17,628 bases of DNA from a virus: positions 1 through 17,628 of IMG/VR virus record IMGVR_UViG_3300010413_000009; one strand, 5' to 3'. Positions within the stretch are counted from its first letter, which is position 1; the number at the start of each line of letters is the position of its first letter. The notes under the pieces are model-generated. The model saw only the letters and a program-made list of their open reading frames with translations, did no database searches and was not told the origin of the DNA. The position numbers were made by a program, and so were the translations under genes. Below, in pieces: positions 1 through 17,628 of the stretch.

Positions 1-938
1 CAGTTTTCAATGATGAGTCCGGCCTGTACGTATGACATGTCCTTGCCAAGCAAGGACACCGCGCCTGCGCCAACGACCCAGACGTCAGTGACCCCTTCCA
101 CAATGATGCAGAACGGCAAGGTTTTTGCCATGTCCGCACCGTACAGCATTAGGCGCTTGTTCGTCCGAGGACGGTTGTAGTATTTTGGCTGTCCAGCCGC
201 TTTCCAATCTATGTCGTAAGGCGGGCGTGCCTGCCATCCCACCATTTGACCATCCATGTAGATCGGAATGATCATCTTGCCGACAACGGCCGGAAATTCC
301 AACGATTCATTACAGTACGACACGTCGTATCGTTCCCCGACTACCTGTGGCGATATTCCGCGCCCCAGCAGGTACTGGCATGCGATATGCTCCACAGGCA
401 AGTTGTCCAATCGCTGACAGTGCCCTGGTAAGTCCACCACGCCCAACGAAAGGTTCTCTGTCTTGCCCGGACGAACAGTTACTCGTTGGCCATGTAATTC
501 GCGCCCGACGCCGCCATAGATCATGTTCCGGAGCGCTTTACGGTTTGCTGGATTTTCCATGCATCCTTCGTTGTAGCAGACGCACATCCACCAGAAGCGA
601 TCGTCCTTATTGTAAAGTGGGTCTGTGGGATCTAATCCTACGCCCCAGCGGTGATTGATCCATAACCGATGGCGCGTATCTACAGCACCGCGCTGGAGAC
701 AGAACGGGCAGCAAACACGGTAATACTCACCAGAACTCAATGGAGAATACCTGTTGTGCCCGCCTACGAACTCGTAGCCGCCGCCGAACATCGCCTCGCC
801 TTGCTTAGCAATTACGACGCTACCGAACTGGCGTACCAGTCGCTCATATAGCATTGGATTGAGCACGCTGGCAGTGTTATTGCCAACATCCCATTCCAAT
901 CCAGCGCCGTTATTAGGCCCGAGTGTTGTGGTATCCAT
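1..938 (-). CDS. DNA primase, DnaG/T7 gp4-like (N-terminal ~312 aa; 3' end runs off the left edge of the window). Not in the supplied ORF track because no stop lies within the window
   Basis: Manual translation of the minus strand from ATG 938..936 is open to position 1. It begins MDTTTLGPNNGAGLEWDVGNN... Zinc ribbon: CCPFC (aa 76-80), then CVCYNEGC (aa 119-126), roughly 561..713. TOPRIM-type motif LPFCIIVEGVTDVWVVGAGA (E-G-x-x-D) at about 75..118. The ATG overlaps the TAA stop of the upstream helicase gene (TAATG at 936..940), which indicates translational coupling. Confidence 0.8.
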   Translation of the reverse strand, partial: MDTTTLGPNNGAGLEWDVGNNTASVLNPMLYERLVRQFGSVVIAKQGEAMFGGGYEFVGGHNRYSPLSSGEYYRVCCPFCLQRGAVDTRHRLWINHRWGVGLDPTDPLYNKDDRFWWMCVCYNEGCMENPANRKALRNMIYGGVGRELHGQRVTVRPGKTENLSLGVVDLPGHCQRLDNLPVEHIACQYLLGRGISPQVVGERYDVSYCNESLEFPAVVGKMIIPIYMDGQMVGWQARPPYDIDWKAAGQPKYYNRPRTNKRLMLYGADMAKTLPFCIIVEGVTDVWVVGAGAVSLLGKDMSYVQAGLIIEN

Positions 939-2554
939 TACCTATCTATCACGACCTGTGGCGCCCTGTGTGCCACGCTTGAATGAAACTTGGAGACATC
1001 TGCCCGCGGCACAAGTCGCCGTGTCACATCATCGACTTGGTAGTGCTTCGAGACATCCACCATGCGACAGTACGCACCATCAATCTTAAGGATCACGGGA
1101 GGCATCGACTCCCCGTGTCGTGTCTTCGTTGCGGCGAACTGACATACGCTATGCTCTTTGTCCTTCGTGCTCAATGCAAAAGCATACCATGCGTGGTCAG
1201 CGAACGATGAACACCACTGTGCTTCTGCGTGATGCGGCAACTTCGCCGGGGGCCGATCATTCAGGCTTCCCTTGAGCTGGTGCGCAATCCACACTGTGCA
1301 GCCGAATGGCGCCGCGATCTCCTGCTTCGCACGATTGACCAGGTTCTGCAGTTGTAGTGACATACCGCTGCCGTCTATGCGCCCCTCTTCAGCCTGAAGG
1401 TAATTTGCCACCATTGCGCCAGCCCAGTCAAGCACAACCATACGGATTGGCATTCCGCGATTATGCCGGATCGCCGTCAGCTTCTGGGCGACTTCCGTGA
1501 CGTGGCCTTTCCCGCCTTTCGCCGGGTTATGATGATCAAGCAGCACGAGGTACTTATTCAGCCACGGACGTGCTTGTTCCAGCCGCTCGGTCTCGCCCAA
1601 CATTTCCGCCGGGTTAGTCGCGCTTGAATACATCGCTTTCTCATAATCCTCAAGGCGGCCGATGCGGCTCAGTTCTGAGTCATCTTTGAGAAAGCGCAGA
1701 CGATCCTTCAGTACGCGCGCACTATACGACGCCGCACGGATTTGGATCATATCCAGATCGTCTTCATAGCTGACAAATACGATAAGGCCCGGTTCCCCGT
1801 CCGCAGCGCGGCGTGTCGCCTGGTGCTGCAATCGCGCTGTGGAACATGCGAGCTGCATTGACAACGTCGTCTTACCGCCCCCGGTAGGTCCAATGAGGAC
1901 ATTGCAATCACCTGGCTGACTGCCGCCACCCATTAGAACATCAACAAAATCGACTCCCGTCGGCCATAGTGGTTTAGCCGCTTTGGCCCACCGCGTTGGT
2001 AACGTGGTGGTGGTTTCCTCCACGCTGCCCAATGCCGCGATATCGATTATGCGCTGCTGTGCCCGTTCAATGATTGCCGGTAGGTTCGCGACGCGCTGTC
2101 CGGCTGCATACGTGATCGCTTGCCGCAGCTCTTCCTCAGGTCCGCGGTCAATTAGAATCTGCCGCAGGATGAATTTGGCTTCGTGCGGTTCAAGCGCCTC
2201 GGGCGGATTGACCTGTGCGTCGAACATGAATTTGAGAATGTGCTCAGCATTCTCGAGGATCTTGCCGCCGGTGGCCGGATCCGCACGCGCGAGCGGATCA
2301 TTCTCGATGTCCGTCAGGACGCGCACGGCCAGCGACTCGTACTTCGGTAGCTGGGCATGCTGTTCGTAGAAGTCCTTTACCTCGCGCCAGATATGTCGAT
2401 AGGGCATCTCGCTCGGCCGAGAGAACATATCCGGATGCAATTCTGTGAAACACAGCTGAAAGACCGCCGGGTCCTGTATCGCGTGCATCAACAGAAATTC
2501 AATGGCAAGCCCGTTGATTTCGAATGGCGCCTGCGGTTGCTTTGTCATTTGCAT
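938..2554 (-). CDS. Replicative DNA helicase, DnaB/SF4 (RecA-fold) family
   Basis: 538 aa, ATG start. Walker A LIGPTGGGKTTLS at about 1865..1891. Walker B-like hydrophobic-D stretches: LVLLDHHNP and RMVVLDWAGAM. The N-terminal ~200 aa helical domain precedes the ATPase core, as in DnaB and gp4 helicases. SD GAGGT lies 8 nt upstream. The stop overlaps the primase start. Confidence 0.8.
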   Translation of the reverse strand: MQMTKQPQAPFEINGLAIEFLLMHAIQDPAVFQLCFTELHPDMFSRPSEMPYRHIWREVKDFYEQHAQLPKYESLAVRVLTDIENDPLARADPATGGKILENAEHILKFMFDAQVNPPEALEPHEAKFILRQILIDRGPEEELRQAITYAAGQRVANLPAIIERAQQRIIDIAALGSVEETTTTLPTRWAKAAKPLWPTGVDFVDVLMGGGSQPGDCNVLIGPTGGGKTTLSMQLACSTARLQHQATRRAADGEPGLIVFVSYEDDLDMIQIRAASYSARVLKDRLRFLKDDSELSRIGRLEDYEKAMYSSATNPAEMLGETERLEQARPWLNKYLVLLDHHNPAKGGKGHVTEVAQKLTAIRHNRGMPIRMVVLDWAGAMVANYLQAEEGRIDGSGMSLQLQNLVNRAKQEIAAPFGCTVWIAHQLKGSLNDRPPAKLPHHAEAQWCSSFADHAWYAFALSTKDKEHSVCQFAATKTRHGESMPPVILKIDGAYCRMVDVSKHYQVDDVTRRLVPRADVSKFHSSVAHRAPQVVIDR

Positions 2555-2558
2555 TGCA

Positions 2559-3296
2559 TTACCTCAGTTTGGCCATCAGTGTGATTTCCGCATCAGTCAC
2601 CAGCTCGACCGGCAGTGCCGTGTTCCAGGTTGCAACATAGCCCATTGGATCCGTCAGGAACTGCTGCATTGCTGCTTCTTTGAAGTGGTCTGCAGCCGGC
2701 AATTGCTCGCTCGTCGCGATGCAGTATCGGAACAGCGGCGGCAACTCCAGCATTGTGTTCATGAGAACATAATTCCAGAGTTGCCTGTTACTGTAGTGCG
2801 GGAATGTCGTCAGCGCTTCGTCTGCGCAGCATTCAAACTCGAGATTGGCCGATGCCAGTTCCTGCTGCAGCGATGCGTCTGCGAACCGTTGGTAGTTCAG
2901 GTAGCGGTCCATTGCTTGTTGCGTATCGAAGGTACCCGGATTTGGCGCCGACGATAGCGTATCATCCCTGGCTATGCTGTACCGATATTGCGCGTGAATG
3001 TATCTCTCGAAATTATCCACGTCGTGCACCAGTAAGAATCGTGCGATACGCATCCAGAGCGGTTTCACGTCCTTTGGACCAGTGAGGTATTCGGAGCGTC
3101 CGGATACCTGCACACTGCGGGCCTTGGCCTCCCTGAGATTGGCGGCAGCCAGTCGATACGCGGCACGATATGTCTCGTTCTGCTGCGTTGGTGTAACTAG
3201 TTCCGCGCTCTCGGGTGGAGGCTGTTGCATGTAGAGATTACCCTCACGAATACGGCCGCGCTTAAACTCATTGACTGTATCATTAGAGTCTTGCAC
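2559..3296 (-). CDS. Hypothetical protein (245 aa), positioned between the two helicase genes
   Basis: ORF with a GTG start preceded by SD GGGAG (8-nt spacer). The stop is 4 nt from the helicase ATG. It overlaps the 3' end of the SF2 helicase gene by 14 nt. No recognisable motifs. Confidence 0.55.
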   Translation of the reverse strand: MQDSNDTVNEFKRGRIREGNLYMQQPPPESAELVTPTQQNETYRAAYRLAAANLREAKARSVQVSGRSEYLTGPKDVKPLWMRIARFLLVHDVDNFERYIHAQYRYSIARDDTLSSAPNPGTFDTQQAMDRYLNYQRFADASLQQELASANLEFECCADEALTTFPHYSNRQLWNYVLMNTMLELPPLFRYCIATSEQLPAADHFKEAAMQQFLTDPMGYVATWNTALPVELVTDAEITLMAKLR

Positions 3297-4812
3297 GTCG
3301 TCTACTCCCAGGTTGCCAAATCGTGCCGTCGCTATTCAGCTGCGTCCAGCCCCGTTTGTGATACATCCGCCGGCGATTATGCGATCGCGAATGAAAGCCC
3401 GTGTCCCAGATATCGTTGCAGTCTACCAGTATGCCCGCAGTCTTGTTCGTTGCGGGATCATTACGGCAAACACGGCCAGGGATTTGCACATTGAATGTGT
3501 CGCTGTCCCCTGCCTCAGCGCGTATCAGCACGTTGAGTGAGTCGAAACTGACCCCTGTGGACCAAACTCCCGTAGCGATTACACACATCTCTCGCCGACG
3601 TTCAAATGCCTGCCCAAGCTCGATACGTCGCTGCGTCGTCATTTCTTCGTCGGGCGCCATTAAGCCTTGCTGGACGTACGATCTTCGTTTTCCTTCGTCC
3701 AAGGCACCTTCTGAATAGCACAAGGTGGCCTCTGGAAGACAACTGCGTAGGTGCATGGCATGCTCCACGGTGTCGACCATTATCAGGACTTGGAGGCCGT
3801 CTTGTAAGAACGAGCGTGCCGCATCTGCTATCACCTGATTCCGCCATGGGTTCCTCCATATTCCGTGTCGCTTCCTTGCTACTAACTGCTGAAACCTCTC
3901 AGCCGGATTGGCACCTGGATCGATATCGAGCCACTGCACATATACGTGTGCTACAAGTCCCAGCGCCTCAGCTTCTTGCTGTGTCATGTGGAAAATGCGT
4001 GGGCCGAAGATGCCTTCCATTCGATGGTGCGCATTGTCCAGTCGCATATCAGGCGTTGCTGTGAAGCAGTAGTTTCGTGACGTCCAGTATCGGCCAAGCA
4101 TGCCAGCGAGCCGATCAGTCATCAATTCATGCGCTTCATCAGCGAGCAGTATATCCGCGCTGAAATCCGAATGGTGCAAACTGTCTGCAGTGTAGACGGT
4201 AACGCGTCGATTGCGTTCCTTCTTGCCGCCGCCGATCTGGCCCATACTTGGTACCCATCGTGTGAGCAATGTCCGTATGCGCCTGACAACGTCTTTCCGT
4301 TTGGTAACGATGTCGATCTTGGCGTGCGGATACATACACGCAATCATGCCCATCAGATGCGTCTTGCCGAAAGCCGGCGGTGCATCTATCAGGCCGTAGT
4401 CGTGCATGTCGATCTGGGCCAGACACACATCCTGTTTGGGCCGTAGCTCGAACCGCTCGAAGATGCGGTCCCACTGCGCAGTATAGATGCGCTCGGCTTT
4501 AGGTTCATCCTTGTCGATGTAGATGACCTCGTAGCCCGCGCGCTGTAGGAGTCCACGCACTCGCGGATAGAAACCCTTCTGACAGACGAAACGTCCCTGC
4601 GAATCGTACTGATACAGCCGACGCTGCTCGTGCTGTTTTATCTCATGTGGACGCCCGTCGTAAGGGCCTCTATGTGCACCGTACTCGAAGTGTAGGTGTG
4701 TGTAGGTGAGCGGTTTCTCTAGTTGTCGATACGTCTTCGGCGATAATGGCTGCACGCCATCTGCAGAGACTTCGATGAACGGACCGCCCTTTTTAACAAT
4801 CGCCCTAACCAT
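3283..4812 (-). CDS. Superfamily 2 DEAH-box DNA helicase (UvsW/Res-subunit-like)
   Basis: 509 aa, ATG start. Motif I DAPPAFGKTHLMG (Walker A). Motif II LLADEAHEL (DEAH). Motif III FTATP. Motif VI QIPGRVCR. Confidence 0.8.
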   Translation of the reverse strand: MVRAIVKKGGPFIEVSADGVQPLSPKTYRQLEKPLTYTHLHFEYGAHRGPYDGRPHEIKQHEQRRLYQYDSQGRFVCQKGFYPRVRGLLQRAGYEVIYIDKDEPKAERIYTAQWDRIFERFELRPKQDVCLAQIDMHDYGLIDAPPAFGKTHLMGMIACMYPHAKIDIVTKRKDVVRRIRTLLTRWVPSMGQIGGGKKERNRRVTVYTADSLHHSDFSADILLADEAHELMTDRLAGMLGRYWTSRNYCFTATPDMRLDNAHHRMEGIFGPRIFHMTQQEAEALGLVAHVYVQWLDIDPGANPAERFQQLVARKRHGIWRNPWRNQVIADAARSFLQDGLQVLIMVDTVEHAMHLRSCLPEATLCYSEGALDEGKRRSYVQQGLMAPDEEMTTQRRIELGQAFERRREMCVIATGVWSTGVSFDSLNVLIRAEAGDSDTFNVQIPGRVCRNDPATNKTAGILVDCNDIWDTGFHSRSHNRRRMYHKRGWTQLNSDGTIWQPGSRRRARL

Positions 4813-4832
4813 GCTATCTCGTAGTGCTGGTA

Positions 4833-4861
4833 TTGACAGCGAACATACGAAGGGCTAGGAT
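4833..4861 (+). promoter_or_regulatory. Sigma70-like promoter TTGACA-N17-TAGGAT on the plus strand
   Basis: TTGACA at 4833..4838 and a 17-nt spacer, then TAGGAT at 4856..4861. The same -35/-10 pair and spacing recurs on the minus strand at 5441..5469. Confidence 0.4.
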
Positions 4862-4867
4862 CGTGGG

Positions 4868-4938
4868 AAGAATCGCCCCAACGACCATACCCTTTGGTCG
4901 CGAATTACCGGAGCCCTGCTGCTACAGGGCTCCTTTTT
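4868..4938 (+). ncRNA. Candidate ~70-nt plus-strand small RNA, antisense-oriented in the helicase / 156-aa-gene intergenic region
   Basis: Bounded by the promoter at 4833..4861 and the intrinsic terminator at 4910..4938. Contains an internal hairpin CGACC-N9-GGTCG (4882..4900). No coding capacity. The overlapping plus ORF 4824..5015 runs through the terminator, so it is unlikely to be a gene. Confidence 0.3.
4910..4938 (+). terminator. Rho-independent terminator, plus-strand oriented
   Basis: Stem GGAGCCCTG, loop CTGCTA, stem CAGGGCTCC (perfect 9-bp stem), followed by TTTTT. On the minus strand the same hairpin follows the TAA stop of gene 4937..5407 but has no U-tract. It therefore works as a terminator only for plus-strand transcripts. 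Confidence 0.6.
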
Positions 4939-5407
4939 ACGTCCTACATGCAGTCTTGTCTGCTTGCTGCCCCTGCGCCGGGGACACGTCTACTACTTCG
5001 AAAGTACCGTACTGATTATCCTTCCTGTAAGGACTGATACCGCGGTAACATCCGGCGATTCGCATAAGCTCTCTGAAGTCGTCAGCCGGTAATGAGGATG
5101 GTATAACTGCACGCACGACAATCGTATCTCCTGGGTAGAACGCTTCGTGCACAGTATACTGACTCGGCGCGTAGAAGCGCTTGTATTCGCGCGGCTCGCC
5201 ATCAATGACAGGATCCCAATCGATGTCTTTGACAGCAGCATGATGCCTATTGACGACTTTAGCCGCGTAACGCATCAATGCCTGCCACCAGGTAGGCAAG
5301 AACATTACGCGGCCGTCTGGCGCGTGGAGCATCCTGCTTATCCGCTTGTGCCTACAGTCTCCCAGTGAGTGCTGATTGAAACGAATCGTAACTGCCATTT
5401 CCCTCAT
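4937..5407 (-). CDS. Hypothetical protein (156 aa)
   Basis: ATG start with SD GGAAGG (6-nt spacer). It lies directly downstream of the TTGACA-N17-TAGGAT promoter. No recognisable motifs. Confidence 0.6.
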   Translation of the reverse strand: MREMAVTIRFNQHSLGDCRHKRISRMLHAPDGRVMFLPTWWQALMRYAAKVVNRHHAAVKDIDWDPVIDGEPREYKRFYAPSQYTVHEAFYPGDTIVVRAVIPSSLPADDFRELMRIAGCYRGISPYRKDNQYGTFEVVDVSPAQGQQADKTACRT

Positions 5408-5440
5408 CGCTGGCCTTCCTTGTCGCCGGCGATTCCGGCA

Positions 5441-5469
5441 ATCCTAGTCGTCCCTGCTGCACGTGTCAA
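5441..5469 (-). promoter_or_regulatory. Sigma70-like promoter TTGACA-N17-TAGGAT on the minus strand, driving gene 4937..5407 and downstream genes
   Basis: Minus strand: TTGACA (5469..5464), then the 17-nt spacer cgtgcagcagggacgac, then TAGGAT (5446..5441). An A-tract (gcgaaaaagtga) lies immediately upstream of the -35, like an UP element. The predicted transcription start is near 5434, about 27 nt before the ATG at 5407. Confidence 0.55.
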
Positions 5470-5495
5470 TCACTTTTTCGCGGCCAACAGCCACG

Positions 5496-5540
5496 GGCCA
5501 CAAATTGTGGTGCGCATGGATACCGGCCACTAGATGTGGT
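5496..5540. promoter_or_regulatory. Two copies of the inverted-repeat site GGCCAC-N5-GTGGT (candidate operator or activator sites)
   Basis: Site 1 is GGCCACAAATTGTGGT at 5496..5511 (core CCACAAATTGTGG is a perfect 13-bp palindrome). Site 2 is GGCCACTAGATGTGGT at 5525..5540. Centres are 29 bp apart. The sites lie about 27 and 56 bp upstream of the -35 of the minus-strand promoter. Confidence 0.45.
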
Positions 5541-5587
5541 ACAGCTACTCCAGTTTAGCAGGCATCCACGTGACACACCAGCTGATG

Positions 5588-6619
5588 TCAGATCATCCCC
5601 GTCATCACTTGGTGCAGCTCGTAAGCCTCGACCTCAATCGGATGCTGAAAGAAGTCTGCGGGACGGAACAATGCTGCATGGCGCTCTGGTGTTGCATCAG
5701 ATTCGCGATACAGCTCACTGAGCCATGTGTGGCGCAGAAAGGCAATAAAGCGCTGAGAAGCGCGCAGATCCGCGATCACGGGATCCGCTGGTGCCCGCGC
5801 GGATGATCCCAATCCGAGTTTGCTGCCCCACGCACGCCACACGAAGTCGCACGGCGCGACGCCTGGCAATGTTGCGTCCTCTACTGGAACGGGCTTGTTG
5901 ATTTCAAACCGCTCGCGGATATCATTCTCCAGCCGGCTGTTCTTCCAACAATTCATCACCACGGCACAGCGATCGTGATATCGCCAACGCCGTTTACCGC
6001 CAGATACGCCTGCTTGCGTTTTCGGATGTAGCCCAAGCCACGCTTCAAGCTTGCCTGTGCGATCTGGCGCGCATTGATCGATGTACCATCTAGGATCGAG
6101 TATGTATGAGAGCAATCCGGCGACAGAGACCCTGTCGAGGCTCTGGATGAAAGATAGCGGACGCCATGCTGGATGCGCGCGCAGCGCGGGAATGATGGCC
6201 GCGGTGATCGCATTCTGCTCGGCAATACTCTTGAGAGCTGCCACGCACAGTGAGTACGCCCGGTAATCGGCCTCAACCACCTCATGAAAACCACCAATGC
6301 TGGGTGCGCGCTGAAACAGCAACATCCGCATCAGCAAAGCTTCTGGCTTGCGTCGCTCGCGCTCAGTCTTGCCGATGAGCGGAGTACACACTTGCACGCT
6401 GCCTATCAGGCCGCGTTGCTTACGGTCATACAGTTGTGTAATGAGCCTCGCGTTCGAGCTGGCGCCGATCACACGGATGCGATCTATTCCGTCTGCTTCG
6501 CCGCTGTCTAGGAATTCCTCCGGGCTACGACTGGACCATCGCACATCGTGGTTATTGGCCAGATACCAAACTCGACCGGCATGCACATGTATGTTCAGTA
6601 CCTGCATAGTCGTTGTCAT
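5588..6619 (-). CDS. Hypothetical protein (343 aa), translationally coupled downstream of the SbcC-like gene
   Basis: ATG at 6619..6617 overlaps the TGA stop of the SbcC-like gene (ATGA). A possible nucleotide-binding-like stretch is RIRVIGASSNARL. No confident family assignment. Confidence 0.6.
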   Translation of the reverse strand: MTTTMQVLNIHVHAGRVWYLANNHDVRWSSRSPEEFLDSGEADGIDRIRVIGASSNARLITQLYDRKQRGLIGSVQVCTPLIGKTERERRKPEALLMRMLLFQRAPSIGGFHEVVEADYRAYSLCVAALKSIAEQNAITAAIIPALRAHPAWRPLSFIQSLDRVSVAGLLSYILDPRWYIDQCAPDRTGKLEAWLGLHPKTQAGVSGGKRRWRYHDRCAVVMNCWKNSRLENDIRERFEINKPVPVEDATLPGVAPCDFVWRAWGSKLGLGSSARAPADPVIADLRASQRFIAFLRHTWLSELYRESDATPERHAALFRPADFFQHPIEVEAYELHQVMTGMI

Positions 6620-14200: not shown

Positions 14201-15097
14201 TCAGCGAACGAGCACGGCCTCCGCGCACTGATTCGCCATTTCGAGATTGGTCACCGCGCCGCGGATCTGGGTCTGTGCCCGCTGCAGGAACTCGATCTGG
14301 AGTCCGATACGCACATCCGAATTGAGCAGCATCTGGGTGGTCCCAGCATGCATCATCTCCTCCGTGACAGCTAGCGACGACTCGTCGGCTTCCACCGGCA
14401 TGCGCGGTTGTGCAGCCTCGGCTACCGTCACTAGCGCGGACGCGGCATCCGTCAACTCCGCGGAAGTTCGGATCTTATGCAGCACCTCGTAGGCGCGCTG
14501 GATAGCCAGAGGACTAGCAGTATCGTCCGTAACCGCACAGGCGTTGGCCTCTGCCAGGCACGCATCGATGTTGATGAGGTGCCCGGCGGCCTTCTCGCGC
14601 TCGACGATCATGATGAACGCATCCTCGTACGTCACCGGCAGTGCGTTAGCAACGTGCTTCGCGCGCTGCGCCACGGCCCGCTCCTTCGCGGATCGCGCCG
14701 CAAGCGTGCGGCCGTTATGCTTCGCCTTGGAATCGTACACGATGAAGATGCGATTGTCATGATCGTGCTCATCCCTGAACAGCGCAACAGCCGCATCATT
14801 GCCATTCCTCTTGAACTCGGCGATGACCTGGTTTCGGCACTGAATCGCGGCAGCGTGGGCGATAGGTTTGCCCACGTACCTCTTCTTCAACTTCCTGAAG
14901 GTGTGGCGCACGCCGTCGAGACTGCTGGCACCTGGATGCTCGCGATAGAACGCGCGGAGCTCGTTCCGATGCTTCGACCGGCCGGGATAAGTCAAAGGAT
15001 CCCATCCGGACTTGCCCTTCTTCTTGCGCTTCGTGCTGTGCGACGGTGACGACGGACGGTCGTTCCGGAACCGGCGTCTTGCAGTGGCAGATCTCAT
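14201..15097 (-). CDS. Hypothetical basic protein (298 aa), candidate DNA-binding protein
   Basis: ATG with consensus SD AGGAGG (6-nt spacer). The N-terminus is strongly basic and NLS-like: RRRFRNDRPSSPSHSTKRKKKGKSGW. The rest is Ala-rich and helical. Confidence 0.65.
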   Translation of the reverse strand: MRSATARRRFRNDRPSSPSHSTKRKKKGKSGWDPLTYPGRSKHRNELRAFYREHPGASSLDGVRHTFRKLKKRYVGKPIAHAAAIQCRNQVIAEFKRNGNDAAVALFRDEHDHDNRIFIVYDSKAKHNGRTLAARSAKERAVAQRAKHVANALPVTYEDAFIMIVEREKAAGHLINIDACLAEANACAVTDDTASPLAIQRAYEVLHKIRTSAELTDAASALVTVAEAAQPRMPVEADESSLAVTEEMMHAGTTQMLLNSDVRIGLQIEFLQRAQTQIRGAVTNLEMANQCAEAVLVR

Positions 15098-15118
15098 AAC
15101 TTTCCTCCTGGGAAATAC

Positions 15119-15191
15119 GGGCGCATCGGCGCCCTGGCAGTGATTGCGACCACGATGATCGCGTTAGGAGTTTGACGCACACCGATGTGCG
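15119..15191 (-). promoter_or_regulatory. Two hairpins in the 115-nt intergenic region upstream of gene 14201..15097
   Basis: Hairpin 1 is GGGCGC-ATCG-GCGCCC (15119..15134). On the minus RNA it is followed by GUAUUUCCC and then the SD AGGAGG. Hairpin 2 is CGCACA-CCGA-TGTGCG (15176..15191). Both share a GCGC-rich stem and a 4-nt loop. Confidence 0.35.
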
Positions 15192-15212
15192 CCAATATGC
15201 CTCTCCACGTCC

Positions 15213-15650
15213 TCATTTCTTCTTCTTTGTTTTTGGTCTGGGCTCCTTCTTGGATTTGGGGTTAGGTTCGGATCTGGTGATTATGATCTTCTCAGGCAGA
15301 TCATCGAGCCTGCCTTGTGCACGGTCTTTTTCCATCGCATGGGTCTTAATATCCTGCTCCAGTCCTCGGTGAATCGAGGTAGTGGCTTCATACACTTTAA
15401 CCGTCTCGGACAGCGCCATGAGTGCTTGAATCACTTGCTCTCCGCGGCTCAAAGCATCCGGGATGACGGATTTACCGTAACGCCCTGACACTGCGCTCGA
15501 ACGGAATTCAAGCATACAGCCAGGGAGTGTGAAGTGGATGACATACGACGCCGAATCGACCGATTGCGTGATGATCTCGGCATTGACGATGAGTTTTGTC
15601 GCCGTGCCTGGCGGGATTGCCTCAGGCAATACCGTTTTCCTAATAACCAT
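15213..15650 (-). CDS. Hypothetical protein (145 aa) with a Lys-rich C-terminal tail
   Basis: ATG with SD AAGGAG (7-nt spacer). Overlaps the upstream gene by 11 nt. The C-terminus is EPNPKSKKEPRPKTKKKK. Confidence 0.6.
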   Translation of the reverse strand: MVIRKTVLPEAIPPGTATKLIVNAEIITQSVDSASYVIHFTLPGCMLEFRSSAVSGRYGKSVIPDALSRGEQVIQALMALSETVKVYEATTSIHRGLEQDIKTHAMEKDRAQGRLDDLPEKIIITRSEPNPKSKKEPRPKTKKKK

Positions 15651-16071
15651 TCATGATCTCCTTGACTGCAAGCAGTTCGGAATCCGGTACTGGGATTGGG
15701 TTGAGCATGCCTCCGTAACGCATGCGCAGTGAGACCAACTCACCGTCACGTACCAGATTGCCACGGTACCTTATAATGCCGTATCCATCTGCGAGTTTAA
15801 TGCGCAGCGTGCGCAGTTCGGCAACCAGCTGTATGCAGTTTTCGGAATCAGCTGAGATGTAGAATCGTTTCGCGTCCAGCGTGCCCCACCAGCACTTTTC
15901 TGCCGTACGGTACTCGAGATCGCCGATACGGCCCGCGGCTTCGCGAAAGATGATCTTCTGTCGGTCTTCTTGTACCGCATTGATTCCGTACATCACCGCC
16001 GTGGTAATGAAGGCAACAAGCAACACCACGATGAGCCAGTTGTGGAAAGTTCGACCCGCAGTCGATGCCAT
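15640..16071 (-). CDS. Membrane-anchored protein (143 aa from ATG), with an N-terminal signal-anchor/TM helix
   Basis: The track ORF starts at a TTG at 16098. The first ATG (16071) has SD AAGGAG at a 7-nt spacer. Hydrophobic segment WLIVVLLVAFITTAVMYGI near the N-terminus. The remainder is predicted to be extracytoplasmic. Confidence 0.55.
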   Translation of the reverse strand: MASTAGRTFHNWLIVVLLVAFITTAVMYGINAVQEDRQKIIFREAAGRIGDLEYRTAEKCWWGTLDAKRFYISADSENCIQLVAELRTLRIKLADGYGIIRYRGNLVRDGELVSLRMRYGGMLNPIPVPDSELLAVKEIMNGY

Positions 16072-16282
16072 CCGAACACTCCTTGTTCTCGTGATCAAAG
16101 TCTGGAAAATGCCTATCCCGGCCTACCCAAAGTACCCAATTTCACAATATATCGGGCAAATCAGGCACGCGTGACAGAAGTCGTTACGGCCGCACGAGTT
16201 ATGACGAGAAATCGTCACTCCGGCATACCACCTCAGAGGGGAAACGTACGGCTAAATGTGCTGGGTCTTGCCTATTTTAACA

Positions 16283-16298
16283 TACGGGTTAACCCGTA
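16283..16298. promoter_or_regulatory. 16-bp perfect palindrome TACGGGTTAACCCGTA (candidate operator), within a promoter-like element on the minus strand
   Basis: Perfect dyad symmetry centred on GTTAAC. On the minus strand it sits in the 16-nt spacer between GTTACA (-35-like) and TATGTT (-10-like). The surrounding 16260..16420 is AT-rich relative to the rest of the window. Confidence 0.4.
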
Positions 16299-16381
16299 GT
16301 TGTAACTCGAGGCAGTACAAGAACTTAGCTGAGGTCAAAAATGATACCCCCCTTTTGGGATTCGGGAATTTGAAATAGTAT

Positions 16382-16445
16382 ATATTAGTCCTCATTTCAT
16401 TCGGACTAATATCGCCGCCGACCGGACGGACGAGATGTCCGTCCG
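16382..16445 (-). terminator. Tandem perfect hairpins at the operon boundary downstream of the 29-aa peptide gene
   Basis: Hairpin A is ATATTAGTCC-N11-GGACTAATAT (16382..16412; 10-bp stem). On the minus RNA it is followed by AUACUAUUUC. Hairpin B is CGGACGGAC-GAGAT-GTCCGTCCG (16423..16445; 9-bp stem). Orientation as a minus-strand terminator is inferred, and the U-tract is modest. Confidence 0.35.
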
Positions 16446-16646
16446 ATCAGGTGGCGTGATGCCCCTCTTTTTTACTATCCAGACGTTGAAGCCTTCTGCG
16501 TACCCAGCGACGGTATTCCGGACCGAGGCGTGGATACGTAAAGTCTCGACGCACCACTGGTGTTGCGCGCGTCTGTTCTGGCGAATTGCCCCGTTTGCAT
16601 TGTTGTTCGACTGCCCGCTGACGCGCAGCCTGTAGATCTGGATGTG

Positions 16647-16736
16647 TCAGAGCAGAATCGCCGCGAGTGCAATGATCAGAATAGCAACCAGTGTGAGCAC
16701 CTCGAAGATGCTCATCTTGCCGTGCTTCCGTGTCAT
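16647..16736 (-). CDS. Small hydrophobic membrane peptide (29 aa), unannotated in the ORF track because it is below the size cutoff
   Basis: Manual translation gives MTRKHGKMSIFEVLTLVAILIIALAAILL*. It has a cationic N-terminus followed by a single TM-length hydrophobic helix. Consensus SD AAGGAG lies 6 nt upstream of the ATG. It starts 11 nt after the TAG stop of the upstream 2-TM protein gene. Confidence 0.5.
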   Translation of the reverse strand: MTRKHGKMSIFEVLTLVAILIIALAAILL

Positions 16737-16749
16737 GATTGTCTCCTTG

Positions 16750-17307
16750 CTACGAGTACCTTTTGAGATAGCCGGCAGTGATCACGACGCCGAGTAACCC
16801 TGCGCCGAGAATCGAAAGCGCGAACGTAAACTGATTCGGGAAGAGAGAGATCCTCGGCGGTGCGGTAACCGACGGCGACTGCCCTTCGTCGATTAGGGTC
16901 TCCCGCAACTTCATCAGTTGATTCGAGATCTCCAACGGCTTCGCATCCGTTGGAAAATGTTCTAGCTCATCGTATGCGCTCTGGATATTGTCGTGCCAGA
17001 ACTTCACATCGCATTTTGGTGTGTAGATGAGCAGTTGCGACTGCCCACTAGTACAACCGCGAATTTTCATTCCGGCCAGCGCGTACTCGAGCTCCTGCTT
17101 TGCCAGCCCGATCGTGTTAGCATCGGCAGCGCGTTTCAAATGTCCGCCAATGTCGCGCTCGTAGCTGAGCCACGCCAGCCCGAGCATCGCCATGAGTACG
17201 CAGAACGGCAGCCAACCGATGGTTACCCAAATCCACGACAGCTCCGATTGGCGCCGTCGCCTTCGCGTTCCGTAATAATCCTGCATACGTTCACTCAATG
17301 TCTTCAT
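16750..17307 (-). CDS. Membrane protein with two predicted TM helices (185 aa from ATG)
   Basis: The track ORF begins at a GTG at 17325. The ATG at 17307 has SD GGAAGGAAGAG. This ATG overlaps the TGA stop of the upstream gene. Basic cytoplasmic N-terminus (GTRRRRRQ). TM1 WIWVTIGWLPFCVLMAMLGLAWL. A ~110-aa central domain. C-terminal TM FALSILGAGLLGVVITAGYL. Confidence 0.6.
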   Translation of the reverse strand: MKTLSERMQDYYGTRRRRRQSELSWIWVTIGWLPFCVLMAMLGLAWLSYERDIGGHLKRAADANTIGLAKQELEYALAGMKIRGCTSGQSQLLIYTPKCDVKFWHDNIQSAYDELEHFPTDAKPLEISNQLMKLRETLIDEGQSPSVTAPPRISLFPNQFTFALSILGAGLLGVVITAGYLKRYS

Positions 17308-17576
17308 CAAAACTCTTCCTTCCACGTAGCCCGCCAGACAATCCGTTCTATCAAGAGCTCGTCCGCTAGAAGCACGTCGTATGGACTGTGCGACTTATCT
17401 CTGAGTCCACGCGCACGACACCGCACGATTGCTTTGGTATCGCGATTCGTGAATCGAGCGAGATATGCGCGCGCCGTAGCGAACGACTTGAATACGTGCC
17501 ATCCAGACACGTACCATGTCTTCGCGTCGCGCACATGCTTATGTTCAGCCTCAAGCCACTGATTGCGCGGCAACAC
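17307..17576 (-). CDS. Hypothetical protein (89 aa; GTG start as given by the track)
   Basis: ORF whose stop is coupled (1-nt overlap) to the start of the downstream membrane protein gene. An alternative-frame ORF at 17366..17596 was rejected. No recognisable motifs. Confidence 0.4.
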   Translation of the reverse strand: MLPRNQWLEAEHKHVRDAKTWYVSGWHVFKSFATARAYLARFTNRDTKAIVRCRARGLRDKSHSPYDVLLADELLIERIVWRATWKEEF

Positions 17577-17628
17577 ACGCGTGCCGCCGTTGCCATGGAA
17601 CAGCGTCTTCAGTCGTCTACGCGCGTCG

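Follow-up and report, generated by a model that had tools for sequence, protein, structure and literature searches.

A probable sigma-70-type promoter with operator-like boxes upstream and a convergent promoter for a predicted antisense RNA in the replication region of uncultured large phages

The stretch of viral DNA analysed here (17,628 nucleotides (nt), positions 1 to 17,628 of the IMG/VR record IMGVR_UViG_3300010413_000009; hereafter the window) carries the hexamer pair TTGACA/TAGGAT twice, and two inverted repeats lie just upstream of the minus-strand copy. The locus raises the question of whether this copy, which we call P2, is a promoter at all, whether its TAGGAT is a special kind of -10 element, as a first-pass annotation of the sequence had proposed, and whether the two repeats, which we call box A (distal) and box B (proximal), are sites for a regulator. 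Our analysis indicates that P2 (5441..5469) is very probably a real promoter, and that it would be an ordinary one of the sigma-70 type, inside a replication gene block and presumably served by a host sigma factor. The boxes are best read as operator-like sites for a putative dimeric DNA-binding protein, and the plus-strand copy of the hexamer pair, P1, is predicted to make a conserved, terminated antisense RNA of ~71 nt. To this reading as a whole, with P2, regulator-bound boxes and a convergent antisense RNA promoter, we assign a probability of about 0.55. The finding is of a known type, namely a sigma-70 promoter with upstream dyad sites, and the promoter itself is unexceptional.

TTGACA and TAGGAT separated by 16-18 nt occur together exactly twice in the window, once on each strand and each time with 17 nt between them, where 0.01 matches are expected and where none of 200 shuffles reached two; the first-pass coordinates of the hexamers and dyads were exact. 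P1 and P2 are also the two best sigma-70-like sites of the window (10 of 12 positions each), whereas promoter-like sites overall are not enriched (7 found vs 11.2 expected). P2 combines a TTGACA -35 with a -10 that has T-12, A-11 and T-7, at a separation within the 16-18 nt typical of sigma-70-type promoters. The relatives used for comparison are uncultured large phages, known from metagenomic contigs of 100-230 kb, the longest of 227 kb, that were retrieved via the helicase and via the 156-amino-acid (aa) protein encoded next to P2; they provide ~16 distinct related loci with shared flanking proteins and, where reported, 52-76% identity between helicases, each examined as +/-10 kb (up to 21.5 kb). 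Among close known phages there was no megablast match, and the best tblastn identity was below 25%.

In these loci, P2 is kept at the syntenic position wherever there is intergenic space for it and is missing in one gene-dense type only; P1 is kept in nearly all, also at the same syntenic spots. When the loci were scanned for TTGACN-N16-18-TANN[AN]T, the pattern recovered at P2 was TTGAC[ACTG]-N17/18-TAnn[AC]T, almost all loci carried the same at P1, and the sole match beyond these two was an intragenic one in L024. The idea that such sites might head gene blocks more widely thus found no support, as there are only two in the 17.6 kb of the window and no further ones in the 21.5-kb loci L001 and L002. 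Across the 11 genomes with free-standing boxes, mean pairwise identity is 0.90 in the -35 and 0.86 in the -10 of P2, as against 0.40 in the spacer between them and 0.29 in the DNA just upstream. This footprint of two syntenic hexamers conserved above diverged spacer and flanks supports the earlier claim of a real promoter. A Shine-Dalgarno-like AAGGA-type motif and an ATG follow P2 after ~30 nt, both in the window and in the relatives. As a separate observation, CACGTGTCA at 5460..5468, which overlaps the P2 -35, recurs 107 bp away as CACGTGACA at 5567..5575, where the upstream gene has its stop codon; this recurrence is probably due to chance.

The relatives do not bear out TAGGAT as an unusual, element-specific signature, since the -10 across them is TAnnAT. 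At P2, it is TAGGAT in most loci and TAGTAT, TAGCAT, TACGAT, TAATAT, TAGGCT or TATCTT in the others; at P1, the versions are TAGGAT, TAGTAT, TACCAT, TACGAT, TATCAT, TAATAT, TAAGAT and TATATT, and only three loci depart from TAnnAT (TAGGCT, TATCTT, TATATT). T-12, A-11 and T-7 are the hexamer positions most strongly read by sigma-70. Because these three are kept while the middle bases vary, TAGGAT is most simply seen as this lineage's state of a standard -10; a literature search for TAGGAT as a special -10 found nothing relevant. The G-rich block noted immediately 5' of TAGGAT is indeed present in both copies, but at different spacer positions, and a spacer G at ~-18 is invariant in 11 P2 orthologues. 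Inspection of P2 by eye revealed neither an extended -10 (TGn) nor a sigma-54-type GG-N10-GC conserved across the relatives. P2 thus resembles the sigma-70 promoters of phage early genes in its perfect -35, its 17-nt spacer, its T-12/A-11/A-8/T-7 and the position of the Shine-Dalgarno-like motif and ATG. It differs in that the middle -10 positions are G/C-rich in this lineage. The species genome collection contained no relative from which a host could be named.

From the stop codon of the upstream 343-aa gene to P2, the genomes with free-standing boxes share four conserved islands, box A, box B, the -35 and the -10, with unalignable DNA between them. Mean pairwise identity is 0.29 in the flank upstream of the boxes, 0.45 in box A, 0.26 between the boxes, 0.68 in box B and 0.29 in the filler from box B to the -35. 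Although this filler is saturated, box B lies 27+/-1 nt from the -35 in 10 of the 11 genomes; in L004, the distance is 11 bp shorter, or about one helical turn, which places the box at ~-59 (box centres are reckoned with +1 placed 7 nt past the -10). The two boxes are spaced by 28-29 bp in most genomes and by 32 bp in L026. In the window, the boxes form a 19-nt direct repeat with 79% identity and 29-bp spacing within the same intergenic gap. CCAC-N5-GTGG is found exactly twice in the window, where 0.23 matches are expected and where 3 of 200 shuffles gave as many, and a box-B matrix scan over 17-21 kb gave no other strong site except box A. The match to CCACA-N3-TGTGG is 10/10 and 9/10 for the two boxes of the window and likewise of L024, and 7-9/10 in the others, for a background rate of ~7e-4 per position at 8/10 or better. 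Dyad symmetry, conservation and a fixed position relative to the promoter are the hallmarks of an operator, and the earlier suggestion of twin dyads serving a dimeric regulator stands as the best reading of these sites. By eye, there is no core site for IHF (ATCAA), and the DnaA box agrees at only 6 of 9 positions.

P1 is no gene promoter but is predicted to drive a small antisense RNA. Its -35 lies 21 nt from the ATG of the helicase gene on the opposite strand (~20 nt in the relatives), and the RNA runs antisense to the stretch that separates the 156-aa gene from the helicase gene, i.e. to the helicase leader. Hairpin 1 has a conserved C-rich loop (uCCCC), the linker GGUCGCGAAU is conserved as well, and the terminator consists of a stem (4910..4933) followed by U5, with a U-tail on the plus strand only according to the terminator scan. 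A 73-nt stretch of the RNA has a fold energy of -28.4 kcal/mol (z = -4.9), and 7 of its 14 pairs show compensatory changes in a 10-sequence alignment. In loci outside the model-building set, a covariance model built from this alignment found one copy per locus, syntenic and on the expected strand (72 bits in L024, 45 in L025, 44 in L026 and 17.5 in L021). A promoter of its own, a covarying structure and an intrinsic terminator on the same strand, the features of a terminated antisense RNA, can thus all be read from the sequence. Neither the small RNA nor either promoter has a match in Rfam, and a tRNA scan was likewise empty.

The small RNA is found in most related phage loci, including three without the 156-aa gene, which is cleanly missing in L001 (9664..9991), L004 (2719..2991) and L006 (~2700..3000) with boxes, P2, small RNA and P1 all retained. 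There, P2 is directly upstream of the helicase leader, and P1 and P2 face each other with only ~120-170 bp between them. Any P2 transcript that is to reach the helicase gene must pass through the small-RNA gene and P1. In the distant relatives L019 (1556..4541), L020 and L027 (2501..4488), genes of 313, 166 and 512 aa abut or overlap, and the covariance model found no copy of the RNA in any of the three; L019 and L020 are also without P2 and P1, and L027 has P2 and boxes but not P1. Hence the promoter pair and the RNA either arose in one sub-lineage or survived only there. In 9 of 10 genomes, the longest complementary stretch shared by the P1 RNA and the P2/box region does not exceed what shuffles give; the exception, L003, has a borderline 10-mer within the coding end of the upstream gene.

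Table 1. Positions of the promoters, boxes, predicted RNA and neighbouring genes in the window
Feature	Positions	Strand	Description
P2 -35, TTGACA	5469..5464	minus	TTGAC invariant in 11 box-bearing relatives and found in every other P2-bearing locus
P2 -10, TAGGAT	5446..5441	minus	17-nt spacer; presumed start at ~A5434, 7 nt past the -10
P1, TTGACA and TAGGAT	4833..4838 and 4856..4861	plus	17-nt spacer; convergent with P2
Box B (proximal), GGCCACAAATTGTGGT	5496..5511		core CCACAATTTGTGG at 5498..5510, perfect CCACA-N3-TGTGG, centre at ~-70
Box A (distal), GGCCACTAGATGTGGT	5525..5540		core CCACATCTAGTGG at 5527..5539, palindrome 9/10, centre at ~-99
Predicted small RNA, ~71 nt	4868..4938	plus	hairpin 1 (GACCA/UGGUC), linker, intrinsic terminator
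Intergenic gap with P2 and both boxes	5408..5587		180 bp
Shine-Dalgarno-like motif, AAGGAAGG	5414..5421	minus	6 nt ahead of the ATG (5407) of the 156-aa gene
343-aa gene, upstream of the boxes	5588..6619	minus	RuvC-like N-terminal domain and helical domain
156-aa gene, first under P2	4937..5407	minus	RAMP (Cas7/Csm3-like) fold
SF2 helicase gene, next in the P2 unit	3283..4812	minus	ResIII and Helicase_C
HldE-like gene	11143..12648	minus	bifunctional: PfkB-type sugar kinase and cytidylyl/adenylyl-transferase

The main rival to a regulatory role of the boxes comes from their origin. In L009, L013 and L028, the upstream gene runs right to P2, and what look like boxes are its last codons (...FFPHVVEVQAYNHYI...). 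The post-stop sequence CCCACATGTTGTGGA of L024 is identical to coding DNA of L028 (15/15 nt), and CCACAATATGCGGAAT, also of L024, agrees with the coding end of L009 at 15 of 16 positions; in alignment A7, the invariant columns are the same in the coding and the post-stop versions of the boxes. Translated, the boxes give PH[VLI][VW] ... [HY][KN][MI] remnants, interrupted by stops and frameshifts in the window's clade, where the upstream gene has acquired a different, common C-terminus (...AYELHQ..MI*) ahead of them. Judged by these alignments, the boxes are a remnant of the former end of the upstream gene, left by duplication or as a recombination scar. It is possible to go further and to regard them as nothing but the leftover last ~20 codons (...PHVV...xHYM...) of a longer ancestral gene, functionless, with P2 working alone and the conserved look coming from conserved codons in the donor genes; the loci L025, L015 and L021, which have P2 without free-standing boxes, would fit this. 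We nevertheless consider a pure scar unlikely. The decay of a single scar should be uniform, whereas identity is 0.26-0.29 in the flanks and between the boxes, a segment that belongs to the scar as well, vs the much higher values within them, and box B keeps its distance from the -35 across saturated filler. The C-terminus shared by the whole clade further argues for one origin rather than for repeated fresh scars. Since uniform neutral decay is unable to explain box conservation next to neighbours at random level, together with the fixed spacing, the boxes are better explained as retained cis-elements. The apparent boxes one turn nearer to P2 in L009 and L013 were rejected as independent support, being coding 3' ends, so that L004 is left as the only true 11-bp spacing variant.

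Several other observations weigh against operator-like boxes acting on P2. The descent of the boxes from coding DNA means that part of their similarity is inherited. Palindromy is good in the window and L024 only and is degenerate in the other genomes, and P2 is kept in L025, L015 and L021 where the boxes are not, from which we conclude that the boxes are accessory. The 29 bp between them correspond to 2.76 helical turns and put them on different faces of the DNA, contrary to the helical phasing that the first-pass annotation had assumed. A perfect -35 with a 17-nt spacer has no obvious need of an activator, and the transcription start sites from which the distances are reckoned are assumed. 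There is also no evident binder: no DNA-binding family, helix-turn-helix or other, was detected among the open reading frames (ORFs) of the window, and the 156-aa gene can be missing while the boxes stay. The 156-aa protein is therefore excluded as a general box binder, its gene being absent from the box-bearing L001, L004 and L006. The basic 298-aa protein, earlier put forward as a candidate regulator, matches no family, and nothing ties it to the site.

Taking P2, the boxes and P1 together, we favour a model in which host RNA polymerase would read P2, as an internal sigma-70-type promoter, on the minus strand, starting in the gap ahead of the 156-aa gene. The transcript would cover the genes for the RAMP-fold 156-aa protein and the SF2 helicase as well as the replication genes downstream. 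A dimeric, sequence-specific protein would bind the 13-bp pseudo-palindromes at ~-70 and ~-99 and modulate P2. The position of the boxes upstream of the core promoter and the variant one turn nearer are easier to reconcile with an activator-like or architectural geometry than with a steric repressor. P1 would fire toward P2 and yield the terminated RNA, so that expression of the helicase block probably depends on how P2 and P1 are balanced, by way of transcriptional interference and/or antisense pairing with the helicase leader.

Class-I-type upstream sites are known for CRP, at -61.5 and -71.5, and for Fis, at ~-71 and -102 of the rrnB P1 promoter. The dyads studied here lie at comparable distances, which are fixed over unconserved filler, with L004 one turn nearer; their sequence is unrelated to the CRP and Fis consensus, the core of P2 is already near consensus and the boxes are out of phase. 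The lambdoid Cro/CI operators, such as the phage 434 operator (ACAA-N6-TTGT), are likewise short palindromes with ACA/TGT half-sites, arranged in tandem beside a promoter, and would imply a homodimeric binder of the helix-turn-helix type. In contrast to these, the half-sites here are spaced as CCACA-N3-TGTGG, there is no overlap with the -35 or -10, and no repressor gene was detected nearby. For the P1/P2 pair, the nearest analogue may be the lambda oop RNA, with its promoter pO set against the pR operon. Lambda oop is also an RNA of 70-80 nt with its own sigma-70 promoter and intrinsic terminator, directed against an early/replication operon upstream of a replication gene, and face-to-face promoters, convergent like those described here, are found in the coliphages 186 and P2. 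There is no sequence or Rfam relation to oop, and the RNA studied here differs in being antisense to an intercistronic leader rather than to a coding 3' end, in having a conserved C-rich loop and in occurring in uncultured phages with contigs of 150-230 kb.

A second alternative to DNA-level operators is that the boxes act in RNA, within a read-through transcript or the 3' untranslated region of the upstream gene, as a hairpin, a processing site, a 3'-end stabiliser or a guide-like unit. The boxes are probably transcribed from upstream, since there is no terminator between the 343-aa gene and P2, and most genomes allow pairing of box A, by its 3' arm, with the 5' arm of box B. The energy of the A:B duplex is, however, only -9.8 kcal/mol within genomes vs -9.1 between them (permutation p = 0.18), with no covariation. 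This pairing, no better within genomes than between them, is explained by the common palindromic motif of the two boxes. Folding gave z-scores of -2.2 to +0.4 and structures that vary from genome to genome; a terminator scan at the boxes found none, and there is no U-run. On these grounds, we reject the boxes as a hairpin in the RNA or an intrinsic terminator for the upstream gene.

The guide-like version of this idea would have box C (CCA), a short spacer and box D (UG), twice, serving the adjacent 343-aa protein. Each box indeed reads CCA-N7-UG in the sense RNA, the best fold matches of the 343-aa protein are TIGR-TasR and TasH, followed by IS110-type transposase and RuvX, and the boxes lie at or just past the 3' end of its gene, and TIGR units are reported to occur in just such a position, at the 3' end of tas genes or within it (bioRxiv 10.64898/2026.09.09.750476). 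A guide RNA would show the opposite pattern of conservation: here it is the would-be spacers (CAAAAUG) that are conserved best, while the presumptive boxes C and D vary, and the spacers would be 5-7 nt long vs 8-12 nt in known tigRNAs (PMC12045711). No tandem array was found near the 343-aa gene, and the NCBIfam TIGR-Tas match of its product scores 21.7, far under the cutoff of 100. A TIGR array or tigRNA in the usual sense, which would call for tandem units with conserved boxes C and D around variable 8-12-nt spacers beside a Tas gene with a Nop domain, was rejected. An RNA-level role for the boxes, in whichever form, seems to us quite improbable.

The likeness of the 343-aa protein to TasR deserves mention in its own right. 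In a 28-sequence alignment, the first strand of its RuvC-like domain lacks any invariant acidic residue, and the domain is probably inactive; PADLOC gave no meaningful matches for the neighbouring proteins. According to a 2026 preprint, TasR proteins with a dead RuvC act as RNA-guided repressors, tigRNA units are sited where tas genes have their 3' end, and compact TasR proteins of dense viral genomes include an array-less branch for which the source of guides is an open question (bioRxiv 10.64898/2026.09.09.750476). The 343-aa protein may belong to this array-less, compact viral branch. The boxes and/or the ~71-nt P1 RNA might then be the nucleic-acid partner of an array-less TasR-like protein that binds at -70/-99 and controls the replication operon, perhaps acting jointly with the RAMP-fold protein and the SF2 helicase; this is a speculative scheme, to which we attach a very low probability. 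If true, it would amount to RNA-guided or guide-derived self-regulation in large phages and would bear on where array-less TasR proteins obtain their guides.

Least likely of all is that the dyads are iteron-like initiator sites of a replication origin, with P2 and P1 providing transcriptional activation or a primer and antisense control: the site does lie between recombination and replication genes, two repeated sites stand beside promoters, and a short antisense RNA adjoins the helicase gene in a manner that recalls lambda oop near ori and ColE1 RNA I/II, but iterons, proposed as an option in the first-pass annotation and not supported here, usually come as at least three direct repeats with an AT-rich unwinding element and an initiator gene, whereas there are only two copies, no AT-rich unwinding element, flat GC content without a skew inflection, several relatives that have the whole replication module without boxes, and a P1 RNA that is terminated after ~71 nt.

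Of the genes in the window, nearly all are encoded on the minus strand; together they make up a replication and recombination block of phage type. In the direction of transcription, it comprises the HldE-like kinase/adenylyltransferase gene, an Mre11-like and SbcC/Rad50-like pair, the 343-aa gene, the gap with P2, the 156-aa gene, the gap with P1, the SF2 helicase gene, a 245-aa gene, a DnaB-like helicase gene and a primase-like ORF. The HldE-like enzyme may point to a link with nucleotide-sugar or DNA-modification chemistry. In L027, the DnaB-like helicase gene carries a homing-endonuclease/intein (Hom_end_hint) domain at 5190..5462 and has a product of 862 aa. Elsewhere in the window, a strong intrinsic terminator on the minus strand (14158..14182; a 10-bp stem with 8 GC pairs, then a T-run) follows directly after the 298-aa gene, ~12 nt ahead of the next gene start, which suggests partial termination or read-through control. 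A stretch of 650 bp at 16100..16750, read on the minus strand, has no long ORF and a lower GC content (0.51); it contains two strong hairpins, CGGACGGAC/GTCCGTCCG (~16445..16420) and ATTAGTCC/GGACTAAT (~16410..16385), and a tiny hydrophobic ORF at ~16735..16650, and it could be a further regulatory or RNA region.

The combination of P2, the boxes and P1 defines a testable regulatory node for an uncultured group of large phages, with the only strong host-type promoter pair in ~20 kb of replication region, a cis-element defined upstream of it and a small antisense RNA that is conserved and has no counterpart in Rfam, and it pinpoints 30 bp and one RNA. Its value lies in the conserved architecture of boxes, P2, RAMP-fold gene, antisense RNA and helicase gene, and the unexpected neighbours, one protein of TasR-like fold and one stand-alone protein of RAMP fold within a phage replication module, add to its interest. 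This surrounding architecture and the neighbouring proteins are more interesting leads into the biology of these phages than the promoter itself.

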